DNA of 64,000 nt from an uncultured Chloroflexia bacterium (GCA_963774265.1 CAVZDU010000005.1:128001-192000), one strand, 5' to 3'. Positions 54,543 to 64,000 are shown, counted from the first letter of the stretch. A program made the numbers and translations. Notes: generated from the sequence alone by a model not told the origin.

Positions 54543-54962
54543 ATGACACTGACGCTATCGGAAATCGACCGCCTCCTGGCCCGGGCGGCTGAGGCTGCTA
54601 AGGCTGCCTACGTGCCCTATTCTCACTTTGCCGTCGGCGCCGCGTTGCGTGCGGAGGACGGGCGGGTGTTTACGGGGTGTAATGTCGAGAACGCTTCGTA
54701 TGGGCTGACGATCTGCGCAGAGCGGAATGCGGTGGCCCACGCAGTCGCGGAGGGCGCCCGGCGCTTCGATGTCATCGCGGTGGTGACAGGGAATGGCGTG
54801 ACGCCATGCGGCGCGTGCCGCCAGGTGCTCGCCGAGTTTGGGCCGGAGATGACCGTCATCGTCGGCGACGCAGCCGGCAATCGATGCATCTATACCATGA
54901 ATGAGCTTTTGCCTGACGCCTTCACCCCCGCGCATCTGGACGGTAGGGACGGCAACCACTAA
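54543..54962 (+). CDS. cdd: Cytidine deaminase
   Basis: PYSHFAVGAA, GCNVENASYGLTICAER, PCGACRQ. Confidence 0.95.
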   Translation: MTLTLSEIDRLLARAAEAAKAAYVPYSHFAVGAALRAEDGRVFTGCNVENASYGLTICAERNAVAHAVAEGARRFDVIAVVTGNGVTPCGACRQVLAEFGPEMTVIVGDAAGNRCIYTMNELLPDAFTPAHLDGRDGNH

Positions 54963-56385
54963 CCGAAGAACCTCGCAGGGCGGACTGCGCGGCGAAATAG
55001 CCGCACATCCCATGCACCCCGCCGCCGGGGGGCGTGGCTGACGAGCAGATGTAAACCCCCTCGACCGGCGTGGCGTAGGGATCGAGCCGGGCCACCGGCC
55101 GGGTGAATAACTGGCGTAGATCTTGAACGCCGCCGTTGATGTCGCCTCCCACATAGTTGGGGTTGTAGGCCTGCATCTCGGCGGCGTTGTGCGTGGCGCG
55201 GGCGAGGATTCGGTCCCGAAAGCCGGGCGCGAAACGTTCGATCTGGGCTTCGATGCGGCCGGTCATATCTTCGGTGGATCCATGGGGCACATGGCAGTAG
55301 GCCCAGGCCGTATGCTTGCCCGCGGGCGCGCGCGTGGGATCGAAGGGGGTTTGCTGGACGAAAATGACGTACGGCCGCTCGGGGTGCTCGCCGCGCCAGA
55401 TGGCCGATTCGGAGGCCGCAATCTCATCCAGCGTGCCTCCCAAATGCACGGTGCCCGCACGTCGACAGGCGCCTGCCTGCCAGGGCGCTGGGCCGTCCAG
55501 CGCATAATCCACCTTGAACACGCCCGGCCCATAGCGGTAACCGGACAACTTGCGCCGGTAGGGGGCGGGTAGCTTGTCCCCGGCGATGGCCACCAACTGC
55601 CGGGGCGTCACGTCAAACAGCACCGCCCGGCTCCGCGGCACATCTTCCATCCCCCCAACCCACTTCCCGGTCGCGATCTCCCCGCCCAGCGAGCGCAGGC
55701 GGCATGCCAGCGCGTCCGCGAGACGCTGGGAACCTCCCTCGACCATCGGCCAGCCCCGCGCATGGCCGAGCAGCCCTAACATCAGCCCGAACGCGGCGGT
55801 GGCCGGCCACTCCAACGGCATGATCGCGTGCGCAGCCATCCCGGCGAAGACCGCACGGGCGCGCTCTCCGCGAAATAGCAGGCGGGCCAGTGCAGACGCG
55901 GGCAGCAGACCCCAGGCGCCGAAGCGGGCCATGGTTAGGGGATGGCGCGGCAGGCGCAGCGGGCCGAGCAGCTCAGCGAGGATGTTGCGCCAGTCCGCGG
56001 CCAGCGGCGCCATCAGCCCGTAATAGCGGCCTGCATCGGGACCGAGCTGCTCGGCGGTGGCCGCGACCGGGCGCTCGATGGTGACGGCCGTGCCGTCATC
56101 CAGCGGGTGCGCAATGGCGGCGGGTGGAAAGACCCACCGCACCTCCGCGTCCGAGAGCTGCAGGCCGCGAAAGAAGGGCGAGGAAACCCCCAGCGGGTGG
56201 ATGGCGGAGCAACTGTCGTGGACGAAACCCGGCAAGGTCAGCCCGGCGGAGCGCATGCCGCCGCCGATTGTGTCCTTGCCCTCGATCAGCAGCACCCGCT
56301 GCCCGGCCCTGGCCAGCGTGATGCCGGCCGCCAGCCCGTTGGGGCCGGAGCCGACGATCACCGCGTCATAATCGGGAGTACGCAT
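54922..56385 (-). CDS. Phytoene-desaturase-like FAD-dependent oxidoreductase
   Basis: VIVGSGPNGLAA, GFVHDSCSAIHP, CSSATPPGGGVHGMCG; start 1 nt after the upstream stop. Confidence 0.88.
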   Translation of the reverse strand: MRTPDYDAVIVGSGPNGLAAGITLARAGQRVLLIEGKDTIGGGMRSAGLTLPGFVHDSCSAIHPLGVSSPFFRGLQLSDAEVRWVFPPAAIAHPLDDGTAVTIERPVAATAEQLGPDAGRYYGLMAPLAADWRNILAELLGPLRLPRHPLTMARFGAWGLLPASALARLLFRGERARAVFAGMAAHAIMPLEWPATAAFGLMLGLLGHARGWPMVEGGSQRLADALACRLRSLGGEIATGKWVGGMEDVPRSRAVLFDVTPRQLVAIAGDKLPAPYRRKLSGYRYGPGVFKVDYALDGPAPWQAGACRRAGTVHLGGTLDEIAASESAIWRGEHPERPYVIFVQQTPFDPTRAPAGKHTAWAYCHVPHGSTEDMTGRIEAQIERFAPGFRDRILARATHNAAEMQAYNPNYVGGDINGGVQDLRQLFTRPVARLDPYATPVEGVYICSSATPPGGGVHGMCGYFAAQSALRGSSVSGCRPYRPDARG

Positions 56386-56386
56386 G

Positions 56387-57181
56387 TCAGGCCGGCCAGT
56401 TTTCGCCCCGCATGAGACTGCCGGCCCACCGGACCGGCGTGGCAAGGGTGTAGAGGGTGGTGCGCACGGCCGCATTATGCCAGACATTTCGCCATTGCGC
56501 CCATTGCACCCTGGGGTCGACAAGTTGGTTTTGTTGAGACACTTCGCCGGTGACACCGAAGTGGGCCGCCAGGTTCTTCAGCGTCCCATGCCAGAACCGG
56601 TCCTCGTTGGGACCTACCACGCGCAGCCGGCTACCCAGCTCCCAAATCGGGTCGCTGGCTCGAATCAAGGCCTGCATCTGAACGACCGGTCCATCTTCGC
56701 CCGGCTCCGCGCTGAAGGTATTCATACCGGCGAACATGTGGCCCTGGGGTGTCATGAACGAAAACGATTCGTCGTCCGAATAGATCACCAGGATGCCGGT
56801 CGAGATGATCGGGCCCCCGCCCGGCGCGGTCATACCGCCCGGCCCGGCAAGATTCAGCACGGCCACCTGACCGGCCGCGATGGGACCGTCGGCGCCGTAA
56901 AAACGGTTCCCGGCGGGCCAGAATTTCGCGAAATTGGCCTTCCAGACTTCGATGACTTCTTGTGGCGTCGCTCGCGACCCAGCCAAGGGGATGCGATACG
57001 TCTTCTGCCACATCTGACCGAAGCCGAGCAGCGGCCCCGACAACTGCCGGCCCTCCACGTTCAGGTTGACGGCCGATCCCGGAATTGCCGGCGCCGTAAG
57101 CCTGGTGACCGGCTGCGCCCAGTTGCCTGCCGAGCGTTCGTTGGTCGTTGTGCTCGCTTGTTTCTCATTCTGCCCCATCAT
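56387..57181 (-). CDS. Hypothetical protein in the STAS operon
   Basis: 264 aa, natural composition (GFGQMWQKTY, FMTPQGHMFAG); tightly spaced between STAS and oxidoreductase genes. Confidence 0.7.
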   Translation of the reverse strand: MMGQNEKQASTTTNERSAGNWAQPVTRLTAPAIPGSAVNLNVEGRQLSGPLLGFGQMWQKTYRIPLAGSRATPQEVIEVWKANFAKFWPAGNRFYGADGPIAAGQVAVLNLAGPGGMTAPGGGPIISTGILVIYSDDESFSFMTPQGHMFAGMNTFSAEPGEDGPVVQMQALIRASDPIWELGSRLRVVGPNEDRFWHGTLKNLAAHFGVTGEVSQQNQLVDPRVQWAQWRNVWHNAAVRTTLYTLATPVRWAGSLMRGENWPA

Positions 57182-57221
57182 GTTTTCCCCCGTCCTGGCC
57201 TGCCTCGGCCATCCTGCATGG

Positions 57222-57572
57222 TCACGCAGCCGCGACGGCGGCAGCTTCATCGGCATAGATGCCGATCGCCTTATCCAACTGCGTTAACTCGAAGATCTGC
57301 TTGTAGTGATCGGTCAGCCCGTAGGCCAGCAGCTTCTGGCTCAGCCTCTTCGCCCGGATAAGCATCGTGACCAGGAGGCCGATCCCGGAACTGTTCATAT
57401 AGTCCAACCCGGTGAAGTTGAGCACGAGCGCCTTTGCGCCGCCATCGCAGGCCCGGCCGTACGCTTCCATCAGCGCAGCTTCGGCCTGGTTGGTGACTTC
57501 GCCCCGGATGTCCAGAATCGCTGTCCGCCCGTTTGGCTGGCGAACGTGAATGTCAATCTTACCTTGTGCCAT
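57222..57572 (-). CDS. STAS-domain anti-sigma-factor antagonist (RsbV/SpoIIAA-like)
   Basis: ILDIRGEV, LVLNFTGLDYMNSSGIGLL, QIFELTQLD. Confidence 0.92.
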   Translation of the reverse strand: MAQGKIDIHVRQPNGRTAILDIRGEVTNQAEAALMEAYGRACDGGAKALVLNFTGLDYMNSSGIGLLVTMLIRAKRLSQKLLAYGLTDHYKQIFELTQLDKAIGIYADEAAAVAAA

Positions 57573-57584
57573 CTCAATACCTCC

Positions 57585-57938
57585 TCAGGACTGCGGTACG
57601 GCCAGCGCGCTGGCCTCATCCGCATAGATGCTCATGAAATCGGCCAACCGGGTGATCTGAAAGATCTCCTGGTAATGCGGGCTCAACCCGTAGACCGACA
57701 GGCGGCGCCGCGCTTTACGCGCGCGGGCGAGGAGCCCGACGATCAGTGCGATGCCGGTGCTGTTGATGTAGTTCACGCCGGTGAAGTTCAGCACAATGCC
57801 CGGCGGGTTGGTCGATTCGGCCTCGGCGTACGCGCTGCTCAAGGCTTCATCAGCCCCTCCGTTGATGTCGCCCTTCAAATCGATGATGGCCGCGTCGCTC
57901 TCCTGTCGGATGCTGGCGCTAAAGTGCATGTCAGGCAT
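57585..57938 (-). CDS. STAS-domain anti-sigma-factor antagonist (RsbV/SpoIIAA-like)
   Basis: IIDLKGDI, VLNFTGVNYINSTGIALI, EIFQITRL. Confidence 0.92.
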   Translation of the reverse strand: MPDMHFSASIRQESDAAIIDLKGDINGGADEALSSAYAEAESTNPPGIVLNFTGVNYINSTGIALIVGLLARARKARRRLSVYGLSPHYQEIFQITRLADFMSIYADEASALAVPQS

Positions 57939-59556
57939 TGGACCCTCCCTCGGCCGCGGCCAGGTTGACGATCAGTTCCACTGTGTGGTGTTGCTCATCC
58001 GCGCGGACGTTCATTTCGTCCACCATGTTTTGGATCAGGAACAGGCCCCAGCCGCGCGGCGACTGCAGCCCCTCCAACTTCGCCTCTAGATCCGGCAACT
58101 CGGCCTCAGGGATCGCGGCGCCGCCTCCGTGGTCGGTGACGTCCACCCGCAGCGAACGATCGCCCCTGAACACCGTGATCTGGGCTGGCGTGTCGCGCCG
58201 GTACTTGTTGCCGTGCTCCATCGCGTTCATGGTAGCCTCAGACACGGCGGTCTTGAGCCGGTCTGCCTGAGTGACAGGGAGATCAAAGCCGGCGATCACG
58301 TCCGCGACCCGGTCCATCGCCAGCCGCTCATTGCCCGGCTCGCTTGGGATCTCGAACCTTGCGACCTCACGCCAGCCTTCGCCGTCCTTCTTTGCTTCAG
58401 GGAGGGGGAGCCGTTCGAGCACGACAAAGGTCACGTCGTCCTCCTGTTCCCAGCCGGGACCCGTGAAGTCCGCCAGTGCGCCGCGCAGATGGTCGATCAG
58501 CTCCTGCCCGCTGCCGAGGCTGCACGCCATTTCACGCAGCCGGGGGAAGCCGAACATCTCGCCCTGTGGGTTGTGCGCCTCCACCAGGCCATCGCTGTAG
58601 ACCAGGATGCTCTCGCCCGGTCCCAGCATCGCTTCGGTCTCGTCATAAGCCATGTCAGGCAGCAGGCCGAGCGGCATGCCGGTGGCCCGCAACTCGATCA
58701 CCGCTTCGCGCGTGCACTTGGCAGGTAAGTTGTGCCCGGCATTGGCGAAGATCAGTCGCCCCGTGAGGGGATCCAACACGCCGTAGAGGCAAGTCACAAA
58801 CATGTTCGAGGGGATATCGGGACAGAGCAGGTTGTTGACCCGCTCCAGCACCGCGGCCGGCGATGTGGGATATTGCTCGGCTGCCAGGCGCAGCATCGTG
58901 CGCGCGGTGGCCATCACCAGCGCGGCCGGCACACCCTTGTCGGTGACGTCTGCCTCCACGAAACCCAACTTGCCGCCGGGCAGCTCTATGAAATCGTAAA
59001 AATCGCCGCTGACCGCCAAGGCCGGCTGCCAGTGGGCTGCGATCTGCCAGCCGGGCAGTGCGGGCACGTCCTTCGGCAGCAACGTCTGCTGGATCACGCG
59101 CGCCACCCGGAGCTGCTGCTCCAGCCGCTCACGAGCCTGCGTCTCGACCTGCTGCTGCCGGACGAGTTGGGCCACCCGCACCGCGGGCGCAGCCTGGCTC
59201 GCGAGATCGGCCAACAGCTTGCGGTCATCCGCCGAGTACTCCTGTTCGCTCAGACGGGGACCGAGATTAACCAGCCCAACCAGCTCGCCCTGGCTTACCA
59301 GCGGCAGAACCACGACCGCGCCGTCCGCGCGCAGCCTGTCCAGTGCGGGCGAATCAAGCCGCAGCTTGCTCACCTCGACCGGTCCGGGCGCGCTCTGCAG
59401 ATAGGCGAGCAGCGGGTCGTTCGGCGCGATGTCCAGGTCGAGTCGCGTGACGGCCGTCGCGGGCGCCTTTGGTTGGGCCGGCCGCTCATCGGCAGGCGCA
59501 GCGGTCTGCTCTTTGTCTTGCGTTCGCCGCTGCCAGAGCGACTTGATATTGACCAT
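57931..59556 (-). CDS. Partial GAF plus SpoIIE/RsbU-type PP2C phosphatase plus RsbW-type HATPase kinase fusion
   Basis: LPLVSQGELVGLVNLG...DDRKLLADLASQAA (C-terminal GAF part); SGDFYD, ADVTDKG, YSDGLVE, EDDVT (PP2C); AVSEATMNAMEHG, TDHGGG, RGWGLFLI (kinase); GGAGGAGG SD. Confidence 0.9.
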   Translation of the reverse strand: MVNIKSLWQRRTQDKEQTAAPADERPAQPKAPATAVTRLDLDIAPNDPLLAYLQSAPGPVEVSKLRLDSPALDRLRADGAVVVLPLVSQGELVGLVNLGPRLSEQEYSADDRKLLADLASQAAPAVRVAQLVRQQQVETQARERLEQQLRVARVIQQTLLPKDVPALPGWQIAAHWQPALAVSGDFYDFIELPGGKLGFVEADVTDKGVPAALVMATARTMLRLAAEQYPTSPAAVLERVNNLLCPDIPSNMFVTCLYGVLDPLTGRLIFANAGHNLPAKCTREAVIELRATGMPLGLLPDMAYDETEAMLGPGESILVYSDGLVEAHNPQGEMFGFPRLREMACSLGSGQELIDHLRGALADFTGPGWEQEDDVTFVVLERLPLPEAKKDGEGWREVARFEIPSEPGNERLAMDRVADVIAGFDLPVTQADRLKTAVSEATMNAMEHGNKYRRDTPAQITVFRGDRSLRVDVTDHGGGAAIPEAELPDLEAKLEGLQSPRGWGLFLIQNMVDEMNVRADEQHHTVELIVNLAAAEGGSNA

Positions 59557-59586
59557 CGAACCTCCTCCCCAATCGGGGCATTACCC

Positions 59587-59616
59587 TGTAGAGACGTTGC
59601 ATGCAACGTCTCTACA
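59587..59616. repeat. GTAG-type REP, perfect 30-bp palindrome
   Basis: TGTAGAGACGTTGCATGCAACGTCTCTACA. Confidence 0.8.
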
Positions 59617-59725
59617 AACCTACATCCGTAGCATAGCGTCCCCGCGTCCGCCGGGCGTTACGGGAACCGTTACGGCCCCCAAAGACATTTGTTGTATGAA
59701 TGTATCGGATACCTGGCCACCAGGT

Positions 59726-61183
59726 CTATCCGATCCCGATTGACTCACGACCCGTTTCGTTCAGCCACACGCTTACGTCTTCCGGCTGCATCGTCTCCCG
59801 CACGACGCGCGCCAGCTCGCCGGTCAGCGCGTCCAGGTCTGTCTCGTCGCGTGCAACCGTCGCGAACCAGGCGAGCACTTGCTGCGCGTCGTACTTGCGG
59901 CGGAAGAAGCGCCGGTCGACGAAATCCTGCACGCGGCGCCGCAGCGGGCTGAACAGCGCCGCGATCGCCAGGGTCGACGCAACGATGGCGACGGGCGACT
60001 GCGCTCCTGTTGCGCCTCTGAAAAGCTGCTGCAGCACCAGCACGCTGCCGTAGAATGCCAACGCGAGGAGGGACGTGACAACTGCGTAAACCAGCGTGCG
60101 CCGGATGATGACATCGATGTCGAACAAGCGATAGCGCGTGATCGCGACAGCCAGGCAGACGGGCAGCAGGATCAAGAGCCAAAGCATGTCCGCTCCAGCG
60201 CCTGACAGCGTTCCCCGCTGGACGACGATCACCAGCATCAGCATGAAGGGTCCGCCCAACCCCAGGCCCATGCCGAGCGTCATCCAGCGCAGTTGCGCGC
60301 GGGCGATCGGATCGCGCAGTGTCAGCCAGTTGTGAATTAGCGTCCCAAAAATCGACGCGACTGTCAGGGCGATATACAGGCCGAAGCAAACGAATGCCAT
60401 TGACGTCCACAGCGGACTGGCCGTGGTGAGCTCCAGATGGCCGAGAACCAGGGTCGTCAGGATCGCGAAACTGTATAGAACAGCGGGCAACAGGCGCGGG
60501 AAGCGCCGGAGCGGCGCCTTGACCACCGGGAAAGCGAGCGGCAACTGGATTAACGAGGCGAAGAAGAACCAGAACCATGAATAGCCAAAAACGTTGGTAG
60601 CAAGCTGGGCCAAAAATGGAAAGGTCGACTGATAGAGTGATGAGACCGTGAAACCTAGCCACGAGACCGCGAAGTAGTAGGAGAAGATCAGAAACAGGTA
60701 GCGGGCGCCCAGGTTTCCCGGCCGCACGAAGAAGGCATACCCAGCTACCAGCACGATGACCAGCGAGACGATTAGTTCTCGGGGTTCCTCCCTCAGAGAA
60801 TCGAGGATGTTGACCAGCGGCGTGGTGGCGCGAAGTTGAATCAGCGGAACAAGGAGTTCCATGGTCTGCCCGTCCCGCTCGACCGTGTAGCGCACGGTTC
60901 GCCCGACGCGCAGATCGGGTGGAAACGGCGGCGCACCCTCCGGGATCAGACCTTGACCCTCGATGGCCACCACCCGGTCGCCGGGTTGGAGCACCGATGG
61001 CCGGCCCGTCAGGTTCGCTTCGGCGACAAAGGCCCCGAAACGGCCATCGGCCGAGCCATAGCGCCAGCCGTCTTGCGGGAACTGGTACACGTAGAGGCCG
61101 AACGCAATGAAGACCACGAGCCAGCCAACCGATACGGCGAGTGTCAGCCAGGCGCCGGCATCGAAACGGCGTTCATCTCTCAT
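59726..61183 (-). CDS. Multi-TM sensor with extracytoplasmic PDZ-like domain and C-terminal partial GAF
   Basis: [12 protein letters not shown]...YTVERDGQ (PDZ-like); many TMs; RYRLFDID...[11 protein letters not shown]...[13 protein letters not shown]; TGATG coupling to the upstream gene. Confidence 0.8.
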
Positions 61184-62688
61184 CAGTTCACGCCCTTGAC
61201 CTGGTCCAGGACCGCGGCTTCCTCGCGCTCGCGCCGTTCCCACTCGGCCGGCGGCCGGCCCAACGACCGCCACTCGGGCGCCAGCGGCATCACCCCCAGT
61301 TGATCCACGATGCGCCGCGCGGCCAGGCCCAGGATCGCGTTATACGTGGGGTAGGCGATCTGCAGCTCGGCGAGTTGTTCCGCCCACATGTCGGCGGCCA
61401 TCCCTGCCGCGACGATGTGGACGATCTCGAGCGCCTGGTCACCCACCACATGGGCGGCGATCAGCCGGTGCGTCTCCCGCGAGACGATCAGCTTGCAGAA
61501 GCCTTCGGTGCGGCCGTCGATCACCGCGCGATCCATGTCGGCGTACGGGACGGTGGAGATCGCGCAGTCCAGCTGCTTGCGTGCTTCCTCCTCGGACGGG
61601 CCCACGCTGGCATACTCGGGTTCGGTGAAGCCGCCGTGCGGGACGATTCGGGCGGAGGCGTCCTGCCGTTGACCCGCGCCCAACACGGCATTCTCCGCCG
61701 CGAGGCGGGCCTCCGCGCCTGCGGTCTGCACCAGCATGATGCGGCCCGTGATGTCGCCCGCTGCGAAGATGTGCGGCGCGGAGGTGCGCATAGTCTCGTC
61801 CGTCTGTACGTACCGGCCGTCCGTCTGCACCCCCGCAGCGACGAGGTTGAGTGATGCCACGTTGCCGAGCCAGCCGGTCGACATGATGACGGCCCCGGCA
61901 CGCACAACGCGTCCTTCTCCATTGTTGGTGTAGTTTAGCGCCAGTCCATCTGCGGCGCGCTCGATCGATTGGATGCCGCTGATACCTGTGACCACGGTCA
62001 TGCCGCGCCGGGTGAAAGCCGCTGTGATGGCCGCGGAGATGGAGTCGTCTTCGGCGCGCAAGATGCGCGGCGCGACTTCCAGCAAAGTGACCTGTGCGCC
62101 GAAGGCATCGAAGATGCTCGCCAGCTGGCACCCGGTCGCCGCGCCCCCGACCACGGCGATCGAGCGGGGCAGCCGGTCCAGGCGCCAGATGTCGCTGTGG
62201 GTCAGGCTGAGTTCCTCGCCGGGAAAATCCAGCCGGCGGGCGCGGCCACCGGCGCACAGGATGAAACGTCGCGCCTGGACTCGCTGGCCGCTCTCGCCCA
62301 GTTCGATTGTGTGCGGGTCCACGAAGCGGGCTGCACCGGCCGGTGCAAAGACCTGGACGCCGGATGCCTCAAGGTGTGCGGCAAGCTGCTTCTTCTCGTG
62401 CACCTCGTACACGATCTCTTGCGTGCGGGCGAGGAGGCGCTGGAAGTCGAGCTCGGGGTCGGGCAGCGTGATGCCGTACGCGGCGTACTGCCGCGCGTTG
62501 CTCATCAGCCGCGCCGCGTGCGCGAGCACGCGCGTGGGCACGCACCCATCGTTGGTGCAGGTTCCGCCCAACTGCCCCGCCTCGACCAACGCCACGGACG
62601 CGCCCAGCTCGCGCGCCCGCAACGCCGCGGTGACGCCCGCAGGCCCGCCCCCAATCACGCAAATGTCGACCATCTCGCTCATCTCCAC
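61183..62688 (-). CDS. Pyridine nucleotide-disulfide oxidoreductase (Lpd-like flavoprotein)
   Basis: [20 protein letters not shown] (redox CxxxxC), [15 protein letters not shown]-terminal dimerisation domain ending YPTYNA. Confidence 0.9.
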
Positions 62689-62748
62689 ATCAATCTGCCC
62701 CTACGATAGCCTGCTCGCGTCCGCAAATCGTTACGAAGTCGGCCCGAA

Positions 62749-63990
62749 TCACGTGCGCTTTCCGTCCGCCGGCCGCAGCCACACATCGGTTTTTGCCGGC
62801 TGGATTGTCTCTTGAACCGCGTGCTCCAGTGCGCCCGATAGGGCGTCCAGGTCGGTTTCCTCGCGGGCGACCTTTGCGAACTGCGCCAACACCCGCTGCG
62901 CGTCATACTTGCGGCGGTAGAAGCGCCGGTCGACGAAGTCCTGCACGCGCCGCCGCAGCGGGCTGAAGAGTGCGGCGATGGCAAGGGTGGAGAGGACGAT
63001 GGCCACGGCCGACGTCTCGCCGGTCGCGCTGCGGAAGACTTGCTGAAGCAAGACGACGACGCCGAAATAGACCAGCGCCAGGAAAGCGGACAGCGCCGCA
63101 TAAACCAGGGTCTTGCGGATGATCAGATCGATGTCGAACAGCCGGTAGCGCAGAATGGCGATGCCAATCGCTACGGGGATGAGCAAAATGGCCAGCGCAA
63201 ACAGCAGATTCACGACATAGCCAACCAGGCCATTATTCAGCCCCTCGAGAGGCAAACCGGGCACATACACCGCGGCGAACAGGCCGCAGGCGTAAAGCAG
63301 CCACTTGATCTGCTGTCGCTCAACAGCAGCTGCCCGGCGATATCGGACGAACAGCGCAGCTACGCTGCCCAACGTCAACACACCGAGGCCAATGGACCAG
63401 GGCACCATGAATAGATTGCTCTCGAGCGGCCCCGAAGGAATGAAGCCGATCGGATTAGCGAAACGCAATTCGCTTTTTGTCGGGTGCTGCATCACGTCTA
63501 CGAACAGCGTCAGGAACGTGAAAACCACACACATCGTGAGGGCGAGATAGATGACCCAGCGCCAACGCGGTGAAGGGGGCCTGCCCGTCGGAAAGAGCAG
63601 CGGGACGAGAAGGATCGAAAAGATGACCGGCAGCCACGACCAGCCAGAGAACCAGAGCGCCATGATCTGGGGAGGGCCGGGCGACGTCGCTTCCGAGATT
63701 TGGGATAGGGATCTATCGGCGAACCACGCCAGCACGGAAGTGACGGCGGGAATCATCAACAACGAACCGAGCGAATTGCGCGGCTGGTTGGAGACGAGCA
63801 GGGCAGCCAGAATCGCAAACTCAATCGGTAGCAGTTTCCACAGCAGGTCACCGGCCTGTTTGATGAGGTTATCCCCCGTGTTTCCCTGGATGGTCCCTTG
63901 GACCAGATCGCTGCCGACGGTGAAAAGTGTGGCGATGACGATGATCGCGGACAGCATCCAGGCCAGGATCGAGCGGGTTCTCGGATTCAC
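62749..63990 (-). CDS. Multi-TM sensor with C-terminal partial GAF, no catalytic domain
   Basis: [35 protein letters not shown]...DRRFYRRKYDA...QETIQPAKTDVWL. Confidence 0.8.
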   Translation of the reverse strand: MNPRTRSILAWMLSAIIVIATLFTVGSDLVQGTIQGNTGDNLIKQAGDLLWKLLPIEFAILAALLVSNQPRNSLGSLLMIPAVTSVLAWFADRSLSQISEATSPGPPQIMALWFSGWSWLPVIFSILLVPLLFPTGRPPSPRWRWVIYLALTMCVVFTFLTLFVDVMQHPTKSELRFANPIGFIPSGPLESNLFMVPWSIGLGVLTLGSVAALFVRYRRAAAVERQQIKWLLYACGLFAAVYVPGLPLEGLNNGLVGYVVNLLFALAILLIPVAIGIAILRYRLFDIDLIIRKTLVYAALSAFLALVYFGVVVLLQQVFRSATGETSAVAIVLSTLAIAALFSPLRRRVQDFVDRRFYRRKYDAQRVLAQFAKVAREETDLDALSGALEHAVQETIQPAKTDVWLRPADGKRT

Positions 63991-64000
63991 GATTGCGTCC

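Follow-up and report, generated by a model that had tools for sequence, protein, structure and literature searches.

We analyzed a 64,000-nt stretch of DNA from an uncultured Chloroflexia bacterium (GCA_963774265.1 CAVZDU010000005.1:128001-192000), hereafter called the window, which carries a candidate phospho-signaling locus made up of membrane sensors, a soluble PP2C phosphatase/RsbW-type kinase, and two STAS proteins. The genes form a closely spaced or overlapping run on the minus strand between 54.9 and 64 kb of the window (Table 1). In the source genome (G000; 10 contigs, 84% complete), the locus lies at 183-195 kb of contig C5 and extends past the window end, where two further sensor copies, S3 and S4, are located. 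A preliminary description of the window had proposed that two multi-transmembrane proteins, S1 and S2, each supply the first part of a GAF domain and that the soluble enzyme supplies the rest, the fold being completed in trans. Its ATG start of S1 (61183), which overlaps the stop codon of the upstream oxidoreductase gene as TGATG, was right, whereas the GTG at 63990 taken as the start of S2 is internal, the true start being an ATG 32 nt past the window end. Residue numbers of S1 refer to its longest frame (GTG 61273, 515 residues); the ATG is the preferred start.

Table 1. Features of the sensor-PP2C-STAS locus. Positions are those of the window except where the record L001 or contig C5 of G000 is named.
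Feature	Position	Strand	Remarks
S2, polytopic membrane sensor without output domain	62749..64000, runs off the window	-	Full gene 427 residues, L001 7749-9032
S2 tail (YDAQ...VWL), 44 residues, GAF α1-α2-β1	62776..62907	-	Stop 8 residues on
Pyridine nucleotide-disulfide oxidoreductase (Pyr_redox), between S2 and S1	61183..62688	-	Stop overlaps S1 start
S1, membrane sensor without output domain	59726..61183	-	Transmembrane/ectodomain layout from model
S1 tail, GAF α1-α2-β1	59762..59893	-	Residues 461-504 of 515-residue frame
28-bp perfect palindrome, REP-like	59588..59615	.	In S1-PP2C spacer
Half-GAF/PP2C (SpoIIE)/RsbW-type kinase protein, 541 residues	57931..59556	-	
Half-GAF, GAF β2 to C-terminal helix	59152..59448	-	Residues 37-135
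PPM/SpoIIE phosphatase domain	58411..58980	-	Residues 193-382, E 5.9e-48
HATPase_c_2 (RsbW/SpoIIAB-type Ser kinase) domain	57970..58350	-	Residues 403-529
STAS1, anti-sigma-antagonist type	57585..57938	-	Start overlaps PP2C stop by 8 nt
STAS2, second STAS protein	57222..57572	-	NSSG
Conserved downstream gene, DUF1990-like	56387..57256	-	Language-model features only
FAD-dependent amine-oxidase/phytoene-desaturase-like oxidoreductase, conserved neighbor	54922..56556	-	
S3, frameshifted shortened sensor copy	L001 9014-9633 = G000 C5 192014-192633		Just past window end
S4, intact sensor, 357 residues	L001 10830-11903		Just past window end

Pfam and NCBIfam scans found no catalytic or output domain in S1 or S2, in agreement with the preliminary description; S1 matched no family, and S2 gave sub-threshold matches to DUF2304 and PrsK only. 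As had also been noted, both proteins stop just past a helix-helix-strand segment, 8-11 residues beyond the 44-residue motif YDAQ...ET.QP....VWL (hereafter the tail). A six-frame search for open reading frames (ORFs) detected the tail in just four ORFs of G000, S1 to S4, all at this locus. The structure model of S1 (mean predicted local distance difference test (pLDDT) score 83.8) shows one transmembrane (TM) helix, a β-rich, PDZ-like ectodomain (residues 66-145), and about eight more TM helices; its C-terminus consists of a continuous helix (427-476), a second helix (480-494), and a coil at 499-509 with pLDDT below 50. Foldseek returned no PDB match to this model at E ≤ 0.001, and weak matches of the ectodomain to PDZ domains (CtpA and Deg9, E about 0.01) and of the model to 7-TM receptors were not significant. 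Among the three intact copies, the β-rich ectodomain (window 60850-61090, residues about 66-145) occurs only in S1.

Pairwise comparison of the intact paralogs S1, S2, and S4 gave 25-28% identity in the membrane part, 91-100% in the last TM helix plus juxtamembrane helix, and 60-64% in the tail, and the motif ET.QP....VW[LI] is retained in all three. Recent gene conversion was ruled out as the source of the nearly identical juxtamembrane segment by the many third-position (synonymous) differences in the DNA, and purifying selection is therefore the likely explanation of its conservation. In the fourth copy, S3, the membrane part is greatly shortened and loss of 1 nt within the tail shifts the frame, pointing to a pseudogene or else to an error of assembly.

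The tail defines a large family that carries no Pfam or NCBIfam annotation. At E ≤ 1e-3, the C-terminal 85 residues of S1 matched 10,277 representative clusters, of which 6,495 remained at E ≤ 1e-10. In the best 150 of the 10,277 clusters, the match lies near the protein end in all but a handful; in P0130, P0144, P0171, and P0212, also among these 150, the sequence past the tail is of low complexity or the start of another sensor, and none of the four runs on into the remainder of a GAF domain. Every named record examined labels the sensor as a hypothetical protein. When longer proteins were searched with the S1 tail, only P0001 was obtained, which consists of two tandem sensors and is not a sensor-GAF fusion. 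Two tail matches apiece were seen in P0001, P0122, P0123, and P0126 (917-961 residues), and the first three hold two complete tail-ending sensors per reading frame, which may be genuine tandem fusions or adjacent genes merged during gene calling.

The PP2C gene starts 169 nt past the S1 stop codon and has its own Shine-Dalgarno sequence (GGGGAGGAGG) 4 nt ahead of its ATG. The intervening spacer contains a 28-bp palindrome, which we call REP-like (repetitive extragenic palindrome) because 13 exact copies, along with 43 half-sites, occur in the genome; the earlier account of this spacer, with a palindromic repeat and an independent ribosome-binding site, thus proved accurate. The encoded protein matched SpoIIE (PF07228; 163.8 bits against a cut-off of 25, profile positions 1-191 of 192) and HATPase_c_2 (PF13581; 73.5 bits against 27.4, positions 1-126 of 127, E 2.1e-20), both at full length, as expected from the PP2C and RsbW-kinase domains first described. 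Six aspartates (D185, D188, D203, D322, D373, and D374), which we take to be the PPM metal ligands, are invariant in 110 PP2C homologs, as are the N-box/G-box-like motifs of the kinase, presumably functional. Scores against the RsbW/SpoIIAB equivalogs remained below the cut-offs (NF003144, 28.3 against 145; TIGR01925, 49.9 against 135), and the kinase domain is thus of the RsbW/SpoIIAB type without being an ortholog.

The N-terminal region of the enzyme corresponds to an incomplete GAF domain. Residues 37-126 matched only positions 44-127 of the 129 positions of the Pfam profile GAF_3, the matches to GAF_2 (87-135) and GAF (89-132) were also partial, and no full-length match to PF01590, PF13185, or PF13492 was found within the chain. 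The profile of PrsK-type histidine kinases (TIGR02916) aligned with the sensor and the enzyme in consecutive order, S2 residues 201-409 to positions 138-348 and PP2C residues 77-130 to positions 407-461, with weak scores (18.6 and 17.7 bits against an equivalog cut-off of 300) that indicate distant likeness. In the model of the PP2C protein alone (mean pLDDT 88.2), residues 37-135 (block-mean at least 84, mostly above 90) comprise only two short helices, one hairpin (82-88 and 91-97), and the long helix 109-159. Strand β1 and helices α1 and α2 are absent from the N-terminus modeled alone, and the preliminary description had held that this region should not fold as a complete domain by itself. 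Residues 1-33 are mostly of low confidence and poorly conserved. By six-frame ORF search, this is the sole G000 protein that begins with a half-GAF; the other half-GAF match in the genome falls on the C-terminal parts of four GAF repeats in a 983-residue frame on contig C3.

Natural proteins in which the two pieces are joined were found among the relatives, as the preliminary description had anticipated. A half-GAF search of longer proteins gave 15 matches, eight of which are proteins of 1065-1410 residues with a SpoIIE domain (54-68% identity), seven of these eight also containing HATPase_c_2. Of the five examined in detail (P0271, P0272, P0274, P0277, and P0278), the last four (1065-1138 residues) consist of a membrane region, tail, low-complexity linker, half-GAF, SpoIIE, and HATPase_c_2 in one chain, and P0271 resembles a run-through of two sensors plus the enzyme. 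The linker between tail and half-GAF is 81-83 residues long in P0272-P0274 and 32-33 in P0277/P0278. In P0278, the Pfam GAF profile was matched over its whole length (1-133 of 133) by residues 502-640, a match that begins inside the tail (483-527), and near-full-length GAF matches were obtained for P0277 (2-130) and P0272 (1-130). In these natural fused relatives, therefore, tail and half-GAF together make up one complete GAF domain. Because the P0274 cluster (44 members) includes several copies of 1116-1123 residues on different contigs, we consider the fusion real. A smaller fused type, present in G197 and G144, has a short membrane region, tail, linker of about 45 residues, half-GAF, and PP2C, and in a distant TM-GAF relative in G046 (L108), tail and half-GAF are joined by a short loop; the G046 frame, scanned as far as the GAF, showed no PP2C match.

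These single-chain proteins, together with the small G197/G144 type, are the closest relatives of the present system, sharing its parts and their order, the tail motif, PP2C, and the kinase, with half-GAFs 54-61% identical to that of this locus in P0272, P0274, P0277, and P0278. They differ in that the GAF pieces are joined by a variable linker (32-83 residues) and served by one sensor, whereas here the pieces are separate proteins and there are several sensors. They are uncharacterized and bear the JGI (Joint Genome Institute) name "serine phosphatase RsbU/anti-sigma regulatory factor". In a tree built from the PP2C-kinase region, all seven of the large fused proteins group together in a single clade (approximate likelihood-ratio support, SH-aLRT, 96) and the small fused type stands elsewhere, beside a split form (SH-aLRT 96). 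Fused types thus occupy two separate places among 33 split rows, which implies at least two changes of state; the tree (41 rows, taken from differently targeted searches) is unrooted and gives no direction to these changes.

The split itself is conserved. The PP2C homologs (120 matches listed) are 482-575 residues long and 59-73% identical. In four of six orthologous loci of relatives, one or more complete tail-ending ORFs lie immediately upstream of PP2C-STAS-STAS; of the remaining two, one has a tail fragment only and in the other the contig ends 426 nt upstream. When the sensor alignment was searched against the genomes of 185,579 species, at least 600 stretches matched, 579 of them confirmed, and the best 76 loci were kept; counts over these loci are slightly inflated, since L083 and L093 overlap and at least two loci repeat DNA of relatives already covered. 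Nearly all derive from Chloroflexota, and one set of sensor genes (L061) belongs to an Oscillochloris isolate. The tail is followed by a stop codon within 30 residues (median 7) in 214 of the 220 complete tails of the 76 loci, and in none of the 220 is it fused to a half-GAF. A half-GAF-PP2C ORF was present in 32 of the 76. It shared its strand with the tails in every case, and the 1-10 sensors of a locus were located only upstream of it (27 loci), only downstream (4), or on both sides (1). Two of the records with tail-ending sensors come from Actinomycetota, a Rubrobacteraceae metagenome-assembled genome (MAG; L082) and an Ilumatobacteraceae MAG (L062); the former has three sensors and a half-GAF PP2C gene whose coding sequence is broken into two frames.

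Such conservation bears on whether the separate genes merely reflect decay or an assembly artifact, that is, a once fused gene broken by a frameshift or by insertion of the REP. In favor of this, the sensor copy S3, one of four, does carry a frameshift, and a REP-like palindrome does occupy the spacer. Against this explanation, however, stops right past the tail recur across the 76 loci in many taxa, the PP2C homologs are uniform in length, and the PP2C gene starts with ATG behind a Shine-Dalgarno sequence of its own, with whole genes intervening between sensor and PP2C in some other loci; we regard it as the least credible of the explanations considered here. A frameshift or read-through joining S1 to PP2C was likewise ruled out by the 169-nt REP spacer, the separate Shine-Dalgarno sequence, and the genes that intervene elsewhere, and the statement of the preliminary description that the split is not a frameshift therefore stands.

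Tail and half-GAF also occur together at the genome level. Among 61 relatives, strong matches (E ≤ about 1e-27) to both were found in seven genomes, to the tail only in one (G022, an assembly of 560 contigs), to the half-GAF only in one (G026, in which the gene lies at a contig start), and to neither in 52. Among 151 genomes of the phylum, 11 had a tail match at E ≤ 1e-20, 13 a half-GAF match, and 10 both. The tail-only genome in this set is G112 (84% complete). As for the apparent half-GAF-only genomes, four diverged tail-ending ORFs lie adjacent to the gene in G183, one at a contig end in G208, and in G197 the tail is fused. Sensors in genomes lacking a half-GAF, which the preliminary description had expected to be rare, accounted for one of 8 and one of 11 tail-holding genomes in the two sets, both fragmented assemblies. 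The number of tail matches per genome reached 14, against one half-GAF (two in G195). In G142, 13 tail matches lie on one strand within 15 kb (contig C176, 481-15407), and in G133, contig C52 carries 12 on one strand; each of these genomes has one half-GAF gene.

We modeled the complex of PP2C residues 30-142 with S1 residues 446-515. The three runs gave interface (ipSAE) scores of 0.60, 0.63, and 0.63, whereas the best of three controls reached 0.03. In calibration, the mark used was attained by 58 of 80 solved complexes and by 2 of 110 mismatched pairs, counts that are rough for this complex, for which a custom alignment was supplied for each partner. The runs had at least 73% of contacts in common, with a partner pLDDT of at least 65. 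In the predicted complex, residues 497-505 of the tail form a strand that runs antiparallel to PP2C residues 93-99, a pairing with very low expected error, and touches residues 40-41, and the tail helix 483-491 rests on the PP2C helix 115-126. The tail strand thereby comes to lie between the first half-GAF strand and the last one, and in the GAF sheet, β1 lies between β2 and the last strand. The predicted interface includes the invariant or nearly invariant residues L483, L487, P497, W503, and L504 of the tail and G94, N97, L98, G99, L118, A122, and A125 of PP2C. The model thus suggests that strand insertion and helix packing complete the GAF fold and, with the fused relatives and the co-occurrence, supports the earlier proposal of completion in trans.

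Alternatively, the sheet of the half-GAF might be completed by a homodimer or a swapped domain, or by the disordered 36 residues at the enzyme's own N-terminus, in which case the tails would bind elsewhere. GAF domains commonly dimerize, and residues 4-13 were modeled as a helix, at low confidence. However, the low confidence and poor conservation of residues 1-33 speak against self-completion, and such an arrangement leaves the fused forms and the co-occurrence unexplained, so that we consider it very improbable.

Several points weigh against completion of the GAF fold by the sensors. The pass of the predicted complex may stem largely from likeness to the two halves of solved single-chain GAF domains, and the prediction speaks for compatibility with a GAF fold, not for binding of these particular copies. 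The half-GAF is modeled confidently without the tail, which would also fit a self-sufficient reduced domain, and isolated tails remained without a Pfam GAF match at a threshold as loose as E ≤ 10. Tail conservation is inflated in the sensor alignment (79 rows), whose members were picked by tail similarity; the genomes compared are kin and not independent samples; and with G000 84% complete, a second half-GAF could be missed. Finally, in 13 of the 76 sensor loci, at least 8.5 kb past the last tail contain no PP2C gene, and therefore some sensors are encoded far off and might have another partner.

Some of these points fit a different picture, in which the tail would be an autonomous docking or dimerization module and the PP2C N-terminus a self-sufficient reduced GAF-like domain, the genes being neighbors through co-regulation or a common pathway. 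The confident model of the half-GAF alone, the failure of the isolated tail to match a Pfam GAF, and the 13 of 76 sensor loci with no PP2C within about 9-10 kb agree with it. On the other hand, one full-length GAF match covers both pieces in the fused relatives, tail and half-GAF co-occur with very few exceptions across genomes, the tail strand is paired in the complex (controls at most 0.03) but disordered when S1 is modeled by itself, and invariant residues of both pieces fall at the predicted interface. We therefore find this picture unlikely.

Downstream of the enzyme, both small proteins have a STAS domain match and a serine at the phospho-acceptor position. STAS1 exceeded the anti-sigma-antagonist cut-off (TIGR00377, 65.3 against 53.45); STAS2 fell just below it (51.3 against 53.45) and matched Pfam STAS (PF01740, 49 against 22.6). 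The NSTG of STAS1 aligns with the DSSG of SpoIIAA (1TH8_B), whose first serine is Ala in the 1TID chain. STAS1 and STAS2 would be substrates of the enzyme. None of the 16 Sigma70_r2 matches of G000 lies in the window or in L001, the nearest on contig C5 being at 309 kb, more than 100 kb from the locus. This is a further point against the reading given below, and the locus departs from the canonical form of such systems, in which a sigma factor is encoded with the module.

Taking these results together, we think that the locus probably encodes a partner-switching-type phospho-signaling module in which two polypeptides each contribute part of the input GAF domain, with the sensors serving as alternative inputs to one hub. 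In each sensor, the last membrane helix extends into a highly conserved cytoplasmic helix (α1), followed by α2, strand β1, and the stop; the soluble enzyme supplies the rest of the GAF (β2 to the C-terminal helix), a helix of about 50 residues, the PP2C phosphatase, and the RsbW-type serine kinase. The sensor strand would insert into the half-GAF sheet between its first strand and its last, and the sensor helices would pack on the C-terminal helix of the half-GAF, so that completion of the GAF would tether the enzyme to the membrane. The completed GAF and the linker helix would then relay movement of the sensor membrane helices to the enzyme, shifting the balance between phosphatase and kinase, which would act on the conserved serine of both STAS proteins. 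Because nearly the same tail is carried by the three intact paralogs (with up to 14 matches per genome elsewhere) and there is one half-GAF, the paralogous sensors would be alternative or competing input subunits of one hub. The data establish the anatomy, its conservation, the fused relatives, and the co-occurrence, whereas binding, exchange of sensors, the direction of the signal, and the STAS target are our inferences. In a stronger form, the GAF would exist only as a heteromeric, membrane-tethered fold for which the receptors compete by offering identical structural elements, the strand and the helices, and which receptor, or whether any, completes it would be the signal that sets STAS phosphorylation, a plug-in architecture through which many membrane inputs reach one phospho-switch; we put this forward only tentatively, as somewhat doubtful.

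Completion in trans may instead yield a fixed heteromer or membrane anchor, with one dedicated sensor, probably the neighboring one, and no exchange, perhaps serving only to localize or sequester the enzyme. The same complex prediction fits such an arrangement, in 8 of the 32 loci the last sensor gene abuts the PP2C gene (-76 to +89 nt apart) as a dedicated pair should, and the two fused lineages demonstrate a workable 1:1 covalent arrangement. However, loci with 2-10 sensors, and genomes with up to 14 tail matches, have one half-GAF, and the three paralogs here keep the interface residues with membrane parts only 25-28% identical; a fixed heteromer thus appears rather unlikely, though a little less so than an autonomous tail.

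Several known systems resemble the proposed module in part. Clostridioides difficile RsbZ and Streptomyces coelicolor OsaC are GAF-regulated PPM phosphatases of partner-switching systems, and a coiled-coil linker mechanism is described for RsbU (eLife 2025, PMC12143880). They share with the present enzyme an N-terminal sensory domain, a long helix leading to the PPM domain, and a STAS anti-sigma antagonist as substrate, here a putative one; in RsbZ and OsaC, however, the GAF is complete and in the same chain, whereas here it is split, phosphatase and kinase form one protein, and the surroundings lack a sigma gene. By analogy with what is proposed there for other sensor-PPM pairs (PMC12143880), the completed GAF might couple the sensor helix through the linker helix to the PPM switch. 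The same article mentions Mycobacterium tuberculosis Rv1364c as a multidomain fusion of the RsbU-RsbW(-RsbV) type (PMC12143880), which likewise combines a phosphatase and an anti-sigma-type kinase in one polypeptide; it differs in its complete PAS input and fused STAS, as opposed to the half-GAF input and two separate STAS proteins of this locus. A sensor domain divided between receptor and phosphatase is not reported in the part of the article consulted (PMC12143880).

PrsK-type TM-GAF histidine kinases (TIGR02916) and the G046 relative have a homologous membrane region, the juxtamembrane RRF.R.KYD motif, and a GAF, with weak scores; PrsK, unlike the system at this locus, is a single-chain histidine kinase whose output is not PP2C. 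Engineered split bacteriophytochrome reporters likewise rebuild a signaling fold from two polypeptides but are artificial and do not constitute a natural receptor-effector interface. The cut in these reporters lies between the PAS and GAF domains, not within a GAF. Full-text literature searches gave no paper that uses "split GAF domain" or similar wording in a signaling sense. The GAF input, PP2C, RsbW-type kinase, and STAS proteins are known elements, and the feature new to bacterial signaling would be the receptor-effector interface, a sensory fold divided between receptors and enzyme.

If completion in trans is true, a sensory domain has been interrupted behind strand β1 and is reassembled from two polypeptides, giving an expandable receptor array on one enzyme. 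Confirmation would provide a function for thousands of orphan membrane proteins in Chloroflexota and at least one Actinomycetota lineage, establish natural fold complementation as a means of wiring signaling pathways, and offer a ready-made scaffold for modular synthetic receptors.

Neighboring genes recur with the module to varying degrees. Homologs of the DUF1990-like gene, which has an atlas feature score of 0.98 and no Pfam hit, were present in 37 of 89 loci scanned, and 33 of these 37 were among the 44 loci with a PP2C gene. Homologs of the FAD oxidoreductase and Pyr_redox genes occurred in 27 and 23 of the 89, respectively. The DUF1990-like and FAD oxidoreductase genes may be an output of the switch or may be co-regulated with it, and the Pyr_redox gene, lying between the sensors and translationally coupled to S1 through TGATG, hints at a redox link. 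Candidate partners of the STAS proteins are the enzyme's own kinase domain and the products of the DUF1990-like and FAD oxidoreductase genes. In a scan of 56000-64000, promoter-like sites were absent and terminator-like sites numbered 7, compared with 4.7 ± 2.0 in shuffled sequences. Past the window end, a small ORF between S3 and S4 (L001 9728-10174, minus strand) contains, by eye, a CxxCH heme-binding motif, and a 979-residue ORF farther on (L001 12759-15698, plus strand) resembles, also by eye, a SARP/AfsR-type regulator with a TPR tail.

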